Shown: in pieces, positions 1,798 through 18,816 of the stretch
How positions within the stretch are numbered: the stretch's first letter is position 1
Layout: each line of letters opens with the position of its first letter
Assembly (NCBI GenBank): GCA_965207375.1
Contig: OZ242274.1
Coordinates: forward strand, 608,001-672,000
Length of the DNA: 64,000 bases
Direction of reading: 5' to 3'
From: Nitrosopumilaceae archaeon
Lineage (GTDB): Archaea > Thermoproteota > Nitrososphaeria > Nitrososphaerales > Nitrosopumilaceae
Position numbers and translations under genes: made by a program
The notes under the pieces: model-generated
What the model was told of the DNA's origin: nothing
The model's input: the letters and a program-made list of their open reading frames with translations, nothing else
Database searches by the model: none

Positions 1798-1800
1798 ATA

Positions 1801-1831
1801 TGTATACTAAATATATACAAACGTAAATAAA
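1801..1831 (-). promoter_or_regulatory. Putative promoter/operator of the MNT-HEPN operon
   Basis: TGTATA-N7-TATACA inverted repeat (1801-1819) just upstream of the ATG at 1797; TTTATTTA TATA-like box on the minus strand at about 1824-1831. Confidence 0.35.
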
Positions 1832-2047
1832 AAGTTTACAATAAAATTTCTAGTATCTAAATCGTTTTGGTAAAGCAACAGCGATGCACTGAATACAATC
1901 TTTTGCTCTCTTCTGTCCAACAAGAGTGGGCAATCTAGACTGGATATAAACAGGTAAAACCCATACGTCCGTATACTAGAATCCTTGTAAGTGTTTACGT
2001 CGTGAACACATGATAACCACCCCTGCGCTGTACTAGTGATGAATCGA

Positions 2048-2144
2048 CCCCTGATTAGGTATGGGCTATGCGCCCTTGGTCGTGAATGGGGCAATCCGAG
2101 CTGCTGTGTAATTGGGCTACGCGCCCTGATAGATGTGTGCAGCT
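2048..2144 (+). ncRNA. Predicted bridge/seek RNA core of IS110 element A (target and donor loops)
   Basis: Two loops closed by CCCC/GGGG and AGCTGC/GCAGCT, each with a GGGC-TAYGC-GCCC hairpin flanked by segments matching target and donor junctions; transcript ends unknown. Confidence 0.75.
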
Positions 2145-2185
2145 TCCGATCCGTCAAAACATCCGTAAGGAGGTGAAAAGAAAGG

Positions 2186-3277
2186 ATGAAAACATACATT
2201 GGAATAGACATTGGAAAGAAAAAGTGTGACGTATGCGTCATAAATGGTACAGGACGAGTACTTGAGACCTGTCAGTATATGAACACGGTAGCAGATGCTA
2301 AAAAGTTTGCAGAAACCATGGCACGAAAATACACGGGAAATAAAAAAACATGCAGTGCTGCATGTGAAACTACAGGCAACATGTGGAATGTTACCTATGC
2401 TAAATTTGAGGCAGCAGGTATACCAATCAAGCTTGCAAATACGTACAAGATGGCCATAATTGCCAAGACTGGTAAAAAGACAGACAAGGTGGATGCACAA
2501 AAGATAGCACAGGTATTACGAATGGATATGATTCCAGAATGTTATGTACCAAAACCGGACATACGAGGAATACGTGCAATGATACGACAGCATATCAAGA
2601 TAGTACATGATAGGACACGAGTGATAAACAGAGTACGCAGTCTTTTAGACAGACATGATGTCTCAATTGATACAGTACAAGTATATGCAGTAAAGACAAT
2701 GCAGTATCTAGAGTCTGTATCTCTTGATGAAATACATGATGAAATAATTCTGCAGCAATATGTCCGACAGATCAGACATCTGACCGAAGAGTTGACCAAA
2801 ATGAATGATTACATAGAACAAGAGGCAGCAAACAACGAGTATGCCAAACTATTGACAAGCATGACAGGGATGGGAACATATACTTCATTGTTGCTAGCAG
2901 TCGAAATTGCAGACATTTCAAGATTTGATAATCCAAAGAAACTTGTTGCATGGGCAGGTCTGTGTCCTACCATACACCAGTCAGGAGATCAAAAATATCT
3001 TGGAAGGATGAAGAAACTAGACACCAACAGTATAGTGAATTGGGCAATGTGCGAGGCAGCAAATGTGGCAGTAACACATGACCCTAGGATGAAATCAATA
3101 TACGAATCTGCAAAAAGGCGACATGCAGACAAGCATGCACTTGCAGTTGTTGTAGTTGCAAACAAGATGATAACAATATCATGGCACATTCTGAACACAA
3201 AGACACCATATTCGTCACACAATACAAGATTGTATCAGCGCAAGCTTGCTAAATTGGAAAAGGCACGTCAGAAATGA
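2186..3277 (+). CDS. IS110-family DEDD recombinase/transposase
   Basis: GIDIGK, ACET and KTDKVDA (DEDD) plus GLCPTIHQSG serine motif; GGAGGTG SD-like sequence upstream. Confidence 0.95.
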   Translation: MKTYIGIDIGKKKCDVCVINGTGRVLETCQYMNTVADAKKFAETMARKYTGNKKTCSAACETTGNMWNVTYAKFEAAGIPIKLANTYKMAIIAKTGKKTDKVDAQKIAQVLRMDMIPECYVPKPDIRGIRAMIRQHIKIVHDRTRVINRVRSLLDRHDVSIDTVQVYAVKTMQYLESVSLDEIHDEIILQQYVRQIRHLTEELTKMNDYIEQEAANNEYAKLLTSMTGMGTYTSLLLAVEIADISRFDNPKKLVAWAGLCPTIHQSGDQKYLGRMKKLDTNSIVNWAMCEAANVAVTHDPRMKSIYESAKRRHADKHALAVVVVANKMITISWHILNTKTPYSSHNTRLYQRKLAKLEKARQK

Positions 3278-3479
3278 TTTGTACCTGTCAAATCCGGTAT
3301 TAAGCTTGCTAGCGTTAGCTATAAATGATATACTAAATAATTAGGCACGGAACGGAAACGCAATAGGGATACATCAAGGTACGCGCCGGGGTGGTTAACA
3401 TAGATGCCTAGATTTTGACCATTTACGATCAAATTTTTGGCAACATGATCTAAATGAGGTCAAATAGCCAAACCATACA

Positions 3480-4889
3480 TTGACAGATTTCAAAAAACTC
3501 TACAAAGCCGAACGAACTAAGAATCTAAAACTCGAACAGATGATGGAGTTGAAAGATGCCATGATCCAAAAAAAAGATGACAACGAAAAAAAACTAAAAG
3601 ATCTAGTAAAGGAGTTAGAAAACAACATACACAATTTGAAAACTATTGCCACTGATCTTAATAAAAAACTCCAATTTTATGATAACGCACACACTCCACC
3701 ATCACGCAAGATGCCAGAAAAGAAGAAAACTGATAATAAAAACAAGGATAAAAACAAGAAAACAACAGGTGAGCGAGGAGCACCAAAGGGACACAAAGGT
3801 GCAACAAGCAAGCCAAAACCTACAAAATTCAAACAACACACGCCAGCAAAATGTCCAGAGTGTGGCTCAAAAGATCTTAAAATTATCAAAACACAGATAC
3901 GTGACATTACAGAAGTACCGCCACAGGTACAACCTGAAACAACACGTCATCATGTAGATTTGTGCTCATGCAAAAACTGTGGCAAAAAAGACATAATCCC
4001 AGAGACTGATTTTCCTACAAAAGGCAATTATGGCAACAATATAGTAACACAGGCAGTAGCAAATTATATCGACAGACTACCTCATCGCAGAAACGCAGAA
4101 GCACTGACCTTGAGGGGAATCAAAATATCTCCAGCTTCTGCACACAACATAATAACCATGGTTGGTGCGTGCCTAACGGCACCCACAAAACAACTCCTAA
4201 AGGCAATCAGGGCTGCAGTCCTGTTACACATAGATGAGACATCAATACACCTAAACGGCAAAAACGTATGGGCGTGGGTATTTTACATTCCAGGTACAAA
4301 TACTGCACTGTATGTGGTACGGCCTAGCAGGGGAAGAGACGTACTCGAAGAGATACTAGGAGATGACTGGAAGGGAACAATCATCTGTGACGGACACAAA
4401 CCGTACATGGTATATGATATCCAGAGATGTTGGGCTCACATCATGCGTGAGATGCACCACGAGACACAAAAATGTGGATGTAAAAAATGTCTGGGTGCAC
4501 AAGAGGCTCTCAAGAAAATATATGAAGATGCAAAAGATACCATAACTGCACGTATCTCGTATAAACGGCGCAAAAAAATACGGCGCAATCTGTATCGTCG
4601 TGTAAAGAGAATTATTAACACATACACTCCATTGCACAATCTCAAAAGATTCATGGGAAAGCTGGGACGAGCCCTACCAAACCTGTTCAGGTTTGTGCTG
4701 GATCCTACCATACCTCCTACCAACAATACAGCAGAACGTGCACTGCGTGAGATTGTTGTACACAGAAAAATACGTGGTGGAATCAGATCCGAAAAAAGCA
4801 TGGAGACATTGGGCAATTTGTTTTCATGTGTGATGACTTGGAGAAATGCTGGATTAAATTATCTAGAAGAGATGGCAAAATACCTCTAG
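3480..4889 (+). CDS. tnpC: IS66 transposase TnpC
   Basis: Coiled coil, CPECG...CKNC zinc finger, HIDET / ICDG / QRCWAH / NNTAERALR motifs. Confidence 0.93.
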   Translation: MTDFKKLYKAERTKNLKLEQMMELKDAMIQKKDDNEKKLKDLVKELENNIHNLKTIATDLNKKLQFYDNAHTPPSRKMPEKKKTDNKNKDKNKKTTGERGAPKGHKGATSKPKPTKFKQHTPAKCPECGSKDLKIIKTQIRDITEVPPQVQPETTRHHVDLCSCKNCGKKDIIPETDFPTKGNYGNNIVTQAVANYIDRLPHRRNAEALTLRGIKISPASAHNIITMVGACLTAPTKQLLKAIRAAVLLHIDETSIHLNGKNVWAWVFYIPGTNTALYVVRPSRGRDVLEEILGDDWKGTIICDGHKPYMVYDIQRCWAHIMREMHHETQKCGCKKCLGAQEALKKIYEDAKDTITARISYKRRKKIRRNLYRRVKRIINTYTPLHNLKRFMGKLGRALPNLFRFVLDPTIPPTNNTAERALREIVVHRKIRGGIRSEKSMETLGNLFSCVMTWRNAGLNYLEEMAKYL

Positions 4890-4968
4890 AGACGTAAAAA
4901 CCACGTTAACACTTACAAAATAACTATTGTAGACTAGGTATTTATTCACGCCTGCAAAATACGGTGTT

Positions 4969-11549: not shown

Positions 11550-11564
11550 TTGGTTAGATCAGTC

Positions 11565-11659
11565 GTAAATGCTAACGTCCTGCCTAGATTTTTTATTTTT
11601 ATGACCTTCCGAATTTGTGCCTAAAACCTACATAATTTCAAAACAATGTTAACAGATAC
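11565..11659 (+). mobile_element. 95-bp IS66-derived MITE with 8-bp TSD
   Basis: Ends GTAAATGCTAACGT and ATGTTAACAGATAC resemble the IS66 TIRs; flanked by direct repeat GATCAGTC (11557-11564, 11660-11667). Confidence 0.85.
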
Positions 11660-11835
11660 GATCAGTCTGAATTGCAACCAAGATAGATCAAAGGTAAGAT
11701 TAATCATGGCTGAAATGACTAAAGACGATATCGAATTTTCATCTATTGTAAAATATGAATAAAGTGGTGAGGACCTAGTCAGAATATGACCGATCAAAAC
11801 CGAATGCTTATGGGTGCAGGGGTAGTATTAAGGAC

Positions 11836-12298: not shown

Positions 12299-12355
12299 GT
12301 AAGTGTTAACGTCATGAACACATGATAACCGCCCTAGCGCAGGTTAGTGGTGAAT
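12299..12355 (+). mobile_element. Remnant of IS66 left end fused to IS110-A left end
   Basis: GTAAGTGTTAACGTCATG-AACACATGATAACC...GTGAAT aligns with 1987-2044. Confidence 0.85.
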
Positions 12356-17275: not shown

Positions 17276-17435
17276 TACTGATTTTTGGTTAGTAATTAAA
17301 TGCTAAGATCAAGTCATCAGACACTCAAATTTATAGTGGTCTTTACCATCAGTATCTATGTGCAGTCTTAATAAAGACTTGGTTGGATTTTGCTAGTTGG
17401 AGTATGACTTTCACTAGAACAATACTTTTTCAAAA

Positions 17436-17562
17436 ATGAAGGTCGGAAATGTATCTATTCGGGCATTAAATCCCAGTACCATGCTTCATCCATTCATTAG
17501 GGTCAAAGTGTAGTTAGTTCCCCGGGCATCGAATCCCATACTGTGATCACACAAATCCCTAA
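17436..17562 (-). ncRNA. Predicted bridge/seek RNA core of IS110 element B
   Basis: Loops closed by TTAGGG/CCCTAA and ATGAAG/CTTCAT, each with a GGGATTYRATGCCC hairpin; flanking segments CAGTA, GGAACTA, ATGGT and ATAGATA match the junctions. Confidence 0.75.
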
Positions 17563-17578
17563 CCATAATGATATCATC

Positions 17579-18787
17579 TCAACTTCGCAGCTGACGTGCA
17601 GTGCTCTTTTGTCCCTCCTTTATACACGTCTCAAAATCAATCTGTTTAATCAACATCCAAAATACACTTTTTAATAATTTGGCAGCAGCTGCTACCCTGG
17701 CCTTTGACCTCCCACGCCTTTTTGCAAGACGTTTGTAAAACACACTAACAGGCGTATATGATTCCCTTTTCTCGGTGACTGCTAGATGTGTAACTACTGC
17801 CTCGACAAGTGCGTGTCTTACTAGAGATGCGCCCATCTTTGTTATGTGTCCATGATGGACAGTATCTGCAGAACGTCTAACTGATGGAACCAATCCAAAA
17901 TACGATGCCAGATGATCTTCATCAGAAAACCTTGCAATATCATCTATTTCAGAAGACAACACAAGTGCAGTATAGTTGGCTATTCCGGGTATCGTGGTGA
18001 GAAGTTGTGCGTTTTTATCCTCCTGTACCTGTTGTTTGATTTGCAGGTTGGCATACGTGATACTGTCTGTAACAGAGGCTAGATTCTTTAGATGCTGGTC
18101 TATTCTCCAGTTGTTTAGCTGGAGCAGTCTCTTTGTATATGGTCCACAAAACGGCGTTCCAGGTATGTCAATGCCTTCCTGTAACAAGATTCCGTGTATC
18201 ATGTTCTTAAAGCGAGTAGACTCTTGGACCATCTTGTGTCTGTATCTGACAAGCTGTTGCTTTTTTACAGTGTTTTCATCTGGTACATGGCATGCTGCAA
18301 CATAATCTCCACGCAGGAGGTCTGCAAGTATTTGCGCATCTACCTTATCTGTCTTCTTTTTAGACTCTGCAATGAGCCTTGTTTTGTATGGGTTAGATAA
18401 TGTTACGTCTAGTTTCAGCTTATCTGTGAGCATACGGTATATGCCGTACCATACAGATGATGATTCTAGTACGTATTTTGCATTCTTTGGCATTTTGGAA
18501 AACGCCTTTTTGATTGCAACCGGATTGCACTCTATCCTGCGGTTCTCATGCACCTTGCCGTCTTTATCCATTACTGCGACCTGCATGAATTTTTTGTGTA
18601 GATCTATTCCAACAAAGTATTTGGGTTTGGTTTTGGGGGTGTTGTTTTGGCCTGTCTTAGATGTCTTTACCTTTGAATTTGTTTTTTTGACAGACCTCAC
18701 ATTTTTTGGATTTTTTTTGCATAATCTGTTTGTTTGCTTTTTGGTAGCATTACCGGTACCATCTAAACCAGAGTTTTTTCGGGGCAC
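17579..18787 (-). CDS. IS110-family DEDD recombinase/transposase
   Basis: GIDLHK, VLES, KTDKVDA and GLVPSVRRSA motifs; start codon uncertain (Lys-rich N-terminal extension). Confidence 0.93.
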   Translation of the reverse strand: MPRKNSGLDGTGNATKKQTNRLCKKNPKNVRSVKKTNSKVKTSKTGQNNTPKTKPKYFVGIDLHKKFMQVAVMDKDGKVHENRRIECNPVAIKKAFSKMPKNAKYVLESSSVWYGIYRMLTDKLKLDVTLSNPYKTRLIAESKKKTDKVDAQILADLLRGDYVAACHVPDENTVKKQQLVRYRHKMVQESTRFKNMIHGILLQEGIDIPGTPFCGPYTKRLLQLNNWRIDQHLKNLASVTDSITYANLQIKQQVQEDKNAQLLTTIPGIANYTALVLSSEIDDIARFSDEDHLASYFGLVPSVRRSADTVHHGHITKMGASLVRHALVEAVVTHLAVTEKRESYTPVSVFYKRLAKRRGRSKARVAAAAKLLKSVFWMLIKQIDFETCIKEGQKSTARQLRS

Positions 18788-18816
18788 ATATGGTTAGTTC
18801 CGATTTTAAATCCAGA

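Follow-up and report, generated by a model that had tools for sequence, protein, structure and literature searches.

The window analyzed here is a stretch of 64,000 nt from a Nitrosopumilaceae archaeon (GCA_965207375.1, contig OZ242274.1, 608,001–672,000, forward strand), and all coordinates refer to it unless a contig is named. The genome comprises 4.3 Mb and has a G+C content of 37–38%. An insertion sequence (IS) of the IS110 family, hereafter copy A, occupies positions 2005–3404 and is itself embedded in an IS66 element; like every feature below for which no strand is given, it lies on the + strand. Copy A consists of a left non-coding end of 181 nt, a transposase/recombinase gene (2186–3277), and a right non-coding end of 127 nt plus core. 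The left end very probably encodes a bridge RNA—also called seekRNA—that guides the recombinase to its target. Such RNA-guided recombination is an already known mechanism, and the host group, the clade of an ammonia-oxidizing archaeon, is little studied.

The transposase gene codes for a protein of 363 aa. The RuvC-like DEDD domain PF01548 covers residues 5–156 (E = 1.6e-27), PF02371 forms the C-terminal domain (4.7e-21), and the NCBIfam model NF033542, "IS110 family RNA-guided transposase," is matched with 223.8 bits at a cut-off of 140. Among 35 homologues, D8, E61, D100, and D103 are invariant or at least 90% conserved and would be the catalytic residues; in the C-terminal domain, G258, C260, and P261 are invariant, and S266 and G267 are at least 90% conserved. 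The GLxPxxxxSG motif is present as AGLCPTIHQSG. Two solved proteins match about equally well, namely ISCro4 (E = 1e-15) and IS621 (E = 5e-14), and the plasmid matches bear the names ISSaen1, ISShdy1, IS1618, and IS5708. The ATG at 2186 is preceded by a Shine–Dalgarno-like GGAGGTGA (2169–2176), a feature of almost every homologous upstream region.

Four full copies of the IS110 element (A–D) with 98 to 100% identity are present in the genome. All of them start with AACACATGATAACC, finish with GGTTAACATAGA, and have TG on either side; excluding these cores, copy A measures 1400 bp. The left core (2003–2004) is common to target and element, the right core occupies 3405–3406, and the flanks of copy A read GTAAGTGTTTACGTCG-TG on the left and TG-CCTAGATTTTGACC on the right. 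TG is found at both junctions of the four copies and only once in three exact empty sites—insertion takes place at the core dinucleotide without target duplication. Sub-terminal inverted repeats of 19 nt (2010–2028 and 3383–3401) begin 6 and 4 nt inside the cores and are complementary at 17 of 19 positions. The original prediction, made by a model from the letters of the sequence, had drawn the same boundaries and the same core; it had also recognized the repeats, for which its figure of 16/18 has to be replaced by 17/19. Copy C (G000:C1:875703-877106) carries one in-frame TAG in the transposase frame (CAG to TAG) and is probably dead.

The host IS66 is divided by copy A into its left tip, formed by the terminal inverted repeat (TIR) GTAAGTGTTTACGT plus the left target CG (1987–2002), and the remaining element (3407–4916), whose transposase open reading frame spans 3480–4889 (PF03050, 1.2e-38; NF033517, 237.5 bits). 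The tip matches the left ends of eight near-full IS66 copies. Because the insertion lies 18 bp inside the tip at 1987, the 14-bp TIR is intact, as had been proposed. A query with IS66 yields 25 matches in the genome, 8 of them near full length: three contain GTAAGTGTTTACGTCGTGCCTAGATTTTGACC unbroken, and the five others differ solely at one or two bases left of TG, where GTCATG, GCCATG, GTTGTG, or GCCGTG abuts CCTAG. Exact GTAAGTGTTTACGTCGTGCCTAGA is carried by 3 of 13 unoccupied IS66-like left ends, and the 10-mer GTCGTGCCTA has three occurrences genome-wide, each at an IS66 left end. The IS66 right end (4881–4916) contains no target site, in agreement with the original prediction. The latter was to be given up if IS66 copies without the IS110 element did not join GTCRTG directly to CCTAG; it stands on this point because the empty left ends join GTCRTG-type sequence directly to CCTAG, three of them as exact uninterrupted copies.

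Specificity for the IS66 left end had also been predicted, and this part stands only partially: copy A sits in a full IS66, but the target range also takes in IS66-derived miniature inverted-repeat transposable elements (MITEs) and remnants, in which copies B to D are found. Copy B (G000:C1:1245892-1247295) lies in an IS66-derived MITE or remnant; its left flank is of the IS66/MITE type, and on the right it is flanked by half of an approximately 100-bp IS66-derived MITE, namely the right half, which is read in more than 20 genome copies. An intact MITE of approximately 100 bp at 11562–11668 features IS66-like tips, an 8-bp duplication (GATCAGTC), and two target-like sites. The surroundings of copy B resemble the left half at site 1 joined to the right half at site 2 of this MITE, with approximately 50 bp between them missing, which indicates a deletion between the two sites. 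A remnant of an IS66 right end lies 37 bp beyond copy B. Copies C and D are inserted in short IS66-like MITEs—short repeats with IS66-like tips—and empty homologues of these are found at C1:306402, 1447927, and 1769612. At 12299–12355 of the window, a decayed junction links an IS66-type left end (GTAAGTGTTAACGTCA-TG) to approximately 40 nt of an IS110 left end; the joining nucleotide is that of copy A. At the target position of a copy-D-type MITE at G000:C1:~484245-484300 (−), all that is present of the IS110 element is the final 13 nt of its right end (GTTAACATAGATG), which may be the footprint of an imprecise loss.

The predicted bridge RNA of copy A (2041–2153) features an outer helix, P1, around two arms, each of which consists of a stem, an internal loop, and a capping hairpin. 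P1 pairs GAATCG (2041–2046) with CGAUCC (2148–2153), shows compensatory changes in five of its six pairs, and is lengthened to 8 bp by RNAalifold. The target-binding arm is based on P2, a pairing of CCCC (2048–2051) with GGGG (2088–2091) that has 88.9% of its cells paired and three double-change pairs; this helix is nearly invariant and less certain, and RNAalifold gives GGG another partner. The strands of the target loop, UUAGGUA (2055–2061) and GUCGUG (2079–2084), enclose the hairpin P3 (GGGC-loop-GCCC, 2063–2075), which is 99.1% paired and has double changes in three of four pairs. The donor-binding arm is based on P4 (GAGCUGC, 2098–2104, with 2139–2145; 92.6% paired, nearly invariant, zero double changes), and the strands of its loop, UGUGU (2105–2109) and AUAGAUG (2129–2135), enclose P5 (2114–2126; 96.3% paired, double changes in all four pairs).

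The two internal loops match four pieces of DNA. In the target loop, TAGGTA (2056–2061) together with the preceding T (2055) pairs with TGCCTAG at the right flank via two wobbles, and the 3′ strand has the same sequence as the left target GTCG followed by the core TG and is hence suited to pair with the bottom strand. In the donor loop, the 5′ strand is the reverse complement of ACACA in the left end (2007–2011), and the 3′ strand is identical to the right end ATAGA plus core TG (3400–3406). All four matches lie at the positions originally claimed. Four right flanks are observed, namely TGCCTAG, TGCCTAA, TGCCTGA, and TGTCTAA, and all of them can be paired with the 5′ guide UUAGGUA via wobbles. 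Wobble in this strand would broaden the target range; a wobble-rich 5′ guide seems fit for hitting a degenerate repeat family.

The minimum-energy fold contains one further pairing, in which the left sub-terminal repeat (CCACCCCTGCG, 2017–2027) is joined to 2165–2176, the region of the Shine–Dalgarno-like GGAGGTG. This pairing is not conserved in all relatives and, as modeled, may mask translation.

Relatives of the element were collected as loci from 61 related genomes and 77 loci from a species-level genome collection, in which the relatives of the window are Nitrosopumilaceae and other Nitrososphaerota. Their transposases are 36 to 69% identical to that of copy A and come from Nitrosopumilaceae, Nitrososphaerales, Nitrosocosmicus, Nitrosotalea, and Bathyarchaeia. 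One common plan underlies the upstream regions. Loci were parsed by anchors independent of the guides, which are present in 72 loci and absent from 9, and the left end is recognizable in 60 of the 72. The 3′ target strand shares at least four contiguous identities beyond TG with the left flank in 39 of 48 unique pairs, compared with 4.3% of mismatched pairs. The 5′ target strand forms at least six contiguous pairs with core and right flank in 22 of 33 unique pairs, compared with 3% in the null. For the 5′ donor strand, 4.87 of the first six left-end bases are paired versus 3.52 (31 unique pairs), with the covarying classes TGTGT/ACACA, TGTAT/ATACA, TGTCT/AGACA, TAAAG/CTTTA, and GCTTT/AAAGC. 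Each of these three guide tests—left flank, right flank, and left end—gives a permutation p ≤ 5e-5. The 3′ donor 7-mer is present in the non-coding stretch past the transposase in 49 of 62 loci with a complete transposase C-terminus.

The helices covary as well. In an alignment of 27 sequences, 93.2% of the cells in the five named helices are paired versus 79.5% in shuffles; compensatory changes affect 15 of 25 helix pairs—a number reached by none of 500 shuffles—with slid controls at or below 48%. Without guidance, RNAalifold recovers P1, P3, P4, and P5. The predicted two-arm fold is borne out by this covariation and by RNAalifold.

The assignment of the first loop to the target is further illustrated by copy D, which occupies the site AGATTTG-TG-CCTAAAGG, compared with ACGTCG-TG-CCTAG for copy A. 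Its 3′ target strand differs from that of copies A–C by three substitutions, from TTGGTCGTG to TTTTTTGTG, which turn GGTCGTG into TTTTGTG. Two of the three changes fall in the matched 6-mer and restore identity to the new flank, the loop strand reading TTTGTG and the left flank GATTTG-TG. Contigs from public sequencing runs carry the copy-D guide variant with all three changes, and other flanks are seen among the four contigs examined. No circle junction appears in these four, although assembled contigs could hardly reveal one; all 14 public entries listed are assembled contigs, with no RNA dataset among them. Copy D is hence a clean example of natural retargeting within one genome, in which three guide substitutions accompany a new class of site. 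Together with the covariation of flanks and ends across the family, it upholds the original reading, in which the first internal loop serves the target and the second the donor. The agreement of copy D, the tracking of guides in relatives, and the covariation of the helices argues that the guide matches are not due to chance.

Alternatively, the protein alone could select the target, and the copies in the left end could be protein-binding sites at the DNA level or relics of recombination instead of guides. The sub-terminal repeats do suggest a contact of the protein with the ends. However, in each loop one strand is identical and the other complementary to the DNA, with G:U-type wobbles tolerated, and therefore the arrangement fits base pairing to both DNA strands. 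In addition, the guide matches fall within internal loops whose helices show covariation at the RNA level, and homologous recombinases need such RNAs according to the published accounts of them (PMC11208160, PMC11187229). Selection by protein alone is thus highly improbable. More improbable still is a guide RNA on the downstream side of the transposase, its typical position in IS1111 elements, with merely coincidental matches upstream. Counting the core, the right non-coding end of 129 nt contains TAGGCA, the exact reverse complement of TGCCTA, but it holds no other 6-mer of target or donor, and the upstream loops covary with the flanks in dozens of loci. The TAGGCA itself does not qualify as a guide: TAGGC(A/G) is kept in the right ends of relatives with quite different right targets and thus fails to follow the target.

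The reading of 2005–3404 as an RNA-guided IS110-family element with an upstream bridge RNA in its left end, the loops of which recognize the target and the element's own joined ends, is assigned a probability of roughly 0.9. Several results weigh against it. As a single sequence, the RNA does not fold better than its shuffles (z = −0.52), and an Rfam scan of 1800–3600 at E ≤ 10 returns four weak, irrelevant matches far below gathering scores. In copy A, the 5′ donor strand pairs over 5 nt only, with the core excluded, and P1 contains one A:C mismatch in copies A–C, where copy D has a G. For the right-flank test, 40 loci were parsed and 22 were dropped—13 because the donor 7-mer is absent within 480 nt, some of their contigs being cut, and 9 because the hairpin could not be parsed. 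Matches are poor in 9 of 48 left-flank and 11 of 33 right-flank pairs; some of these are one-register parsing errors, and others may be real mismatches. Finally, the permutation tests ignore kinship among the loci. They are nonetheless supported, because copies in the same genome with different guides occupy correspondingly different flanks (L082/L083/L084, L132/L133, and L090/L104) and point in the same direction.

What was computed here comprises the element boundaries, the empty sites, and two kinds of covariation, one linking the guides to flanks and ends, the other within the helices; for the steps that link them, we infer transcription, binding of RNA to protein, a circular intermediate, and the recombination chemistry. 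The 181-nt left end would give rise to the bridge RNA with P1 around its two arms. The DEDD recombinase would excise a circle with the junction ...CATAGA-TG-AACACA... (...AACATAGA-TG-AACACATG...). The first loop would read the target site and the second the joined ends, AUAGAUG representing right end plus core and UGUGU pairing with the left end. Recombination at the TG core would then place the element into NNTCG/TTTG-TG-CCTR sites just inside the left ends of IS66 and IS66-derived MITEs, and no target duplication would result.

Three observations concern variants among the relatives. In L052, L059, L087, and L089 of a Cenarchaeum metagenome-assembled genome (MAG), the usual left end lacks its initial 8 nt and the donor loop is unmatched; both target strands match the flanks, which lie in a small palindromic repeat. 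The protein P0092 (584 aa) is a fusion of an IS110 N-terminal domain—68% identical to that of copy A over 53% of it—to a phage integrase (PF00589). In the related genome G004:C2, approximately ten places feature a transposase that a single TGA interrupts at one common position (residue ~155), which could represent a common inactivating mutation, recoding, or a frameshift.

The RNA-guided mechanism is established for IS621, ISEc11, and ISEc21 (PMC11208160, PMC11187229). As described by Durrant et al. 2024 (PMC11208160; structures 8wt6 etc.), IS621 likewise features a DEDD recombinase of PF01548 and PF02371, a left-end RNA upstream of the gene, two internal loops for target and donor, a core dinucleotide in the pairings, and no duplication. 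In contrast to IS621, copy A has the opposite loop polarity (by the description in PMC11208160), 19-nt sub-terminal repeats, an outer helix around both arms, and a TG core, and the match between the proteins is distant (E = 5e-14). Of the traits of the narrow IS110 group, copy A has the left-end RNA, whereas its repeats are long where those of the group are absent or 2–3 bp.

IS1111 elements bear a different set of resemblances. In the account of Siddiquee et al. 2024 (PMC11187229), IS1111 seekRNAs have the top-strand match 5′ of the bottom-strand match, and the order is the opposite in the IS110-type ISEc21. In copy A, the 5′ strands are complementary to the top strand and the 3′ strands identical to it, which is the IS1111 order. 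Sub-terminal repeats in the IS1111 group measure 7–17 bp or more. The sub-terminal repeats, this strand order, the GLxPxxxxSG motif, and the use of repeated sequences as targets are common to copy A and the IS1111 elements ISEc11, ISPa11, and ISKpn4 as portrayed in PMC11187229. Differences are the position of the RNA, which is upstream in copy A (2041–2153, ATG at 2186) and not downstream, the archaeal host, and the length of the transposase, 363 aa compared with the 330 to 350 aa given for the family (PMC11187229). The same source names ISMtsp17 as an IS1111 relative whose long non-coding region is upstream, and ISHvo10 and ISAcp5 as relatives with such regions at either side. These three are likened to copy A and to a Haloarcula plasmid relative by their published description; the Haloarcula relative has 33.6% amino acid identity, the upstream layout, 13-bp perfect repeats, and approximately 200 nt on each side, and its loop strands likewise track their own flanks or ends. 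The original description of copy A as an IS1111-type element with the less common upstream RNA fits three things, namely the repeats, the guide order, and the exceptions in PMC11187229. The mixed layout—IS1111 polarity and repeats with an upstream RNA—bears on the movement of the RNA between the ends in the evolution of IS110 and IS1111.

A second IS110-family element is contained in the window at 17355–18796 (−). Its protein is 29% identical to that of copy A, and it features a downstream two-loop RNA, the core TA, and the same loop grammar; on reading, its guides correspond to GGAAC-TA-CTG and to the ends of the element itself.

Mobile elements serve as landing sites in other systems as well. 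IS4321 and IS5075 use the terminal repeats of Tn21-family transposons. For ISEc21, PMC11187229 reports insertion into a conserved part of the transposase genes of the IS3 family. Like these, copy A uses another mobile element; here, the sites belong to IS66 and its MITEs, and insertion is sub-terminal and keeps the 14-bp TIR intact. In the literature searched, no bridge RNA of Nitrososphaerota is described; archaeal members or the layout may already be included in the ISfinder-wide tables that Durrant et al. and Siddiquee et al. compiled. The present data extend bridge/seekRNA-guided recombination, at the level of sequence, to MAGs of Nitrososphaerota and Bathyarchaeia and to one Haloarcula plasmid.

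The right non-coding end features two conserved parts. An outward-facing TATA-like block, CTAGCGTTAGCTATAAA (3309–3325), is nearly invariant across 11 right ends, in which near-invariant CYAGCGNNAGCTWTAAA with two varying columns is followed by a variable spacer of 17 to 19 nt and a conserved box; the block is a putative promoter. The box, GGCACGGAACGGAA (3344–3357), is complementary to 2145–2157, and its sequence covaries with that of the P1 3′ strand. Over 36 unique loci, the longest match between the two averages 6.58 versus 4.68 (p = 2e-4), and a match of at least 8 nt is found in 11 of the 36 compared with 3.6% in the null. The covarying variants are GGATCGG/CCGATCC, GATCAGA/TCTGATC, GGCTGGAA/TTCCAGCC, and TGCTGGTTT/AAACCAGCA. 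In most loci, the box lies 46 to 61 nt ahead of the right end irrespective of the length of the end.

These features allow for a tentative alternative, in which the guide RNA spans the junction: it would start in the right end near 3344 from the outward promoter at 3309–3325, GGCACGGAACGGAA would pair with the P1 3′ strand, the repeats would form a junction-capped hairpin, and the complete RNA would arise solely from the circle or from tandem copies. The covariation of the box with P1 and the conserved succession of block, spacer, and box are in line with it. In addition, minimum-energy folds of computed junction RNAs, made without shuffle control, close the 5′ and 3′ ends by at least seven pairs in 27 of 36 cases, with the extended repeats forming a long hairpin, and bacterial circles are described in PMC11208160 as re-forming a promoter over the junction. 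However, pairing of the two ends is common anyway when a 220-nt RNA is folded for minimum energy. The TATA-like block is documented in the Nitrosopumilaceae subclade alone, and clades with short right ends have no obvious box as judged by eye. The box could also pair with the 5′ leader from the 3′ untranslated region of one long mRNA or be a decaying relic of a downstream RNA. A junction-spanning guide RNA is, on balance, doubtful, and a shade more doubtful is the proposal, drawn from these motifs, that the bridge RNA is a split gene with promoter and 5′ leader in the right end and guide arms in the left end, fully transcribed only after joining in the circle.

If the gene were split in this way, maturation of the guide RNA would be coupled to excision, and the co-occurrence of long sub-terminal repeats with the loop polarity would find an interpretation; the outward promoter of an integrated element would read into the IS66 transposase gene. 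For the bridge RNA encoded in the left end, the right-end box and the promoter-like motif provide a testable lead on archaeal expression of such RNAs.

To the left of copy A, the window contains an IS66 right-end remnant at 650–800, with 82% identity over approximately 105 bp plus a 40-bp internal piece. It lies upstream of two overlapping neighbors at 795–1797 (−) that encode a HEPN protein (PF05168) and a nucleotidyltransferase (PF18765/PF01909). Adjacent overlapping HEPN and nucleotidyltransferase genes are the usual appearance of a HEPN-MNT toxin–antitoxin pair.

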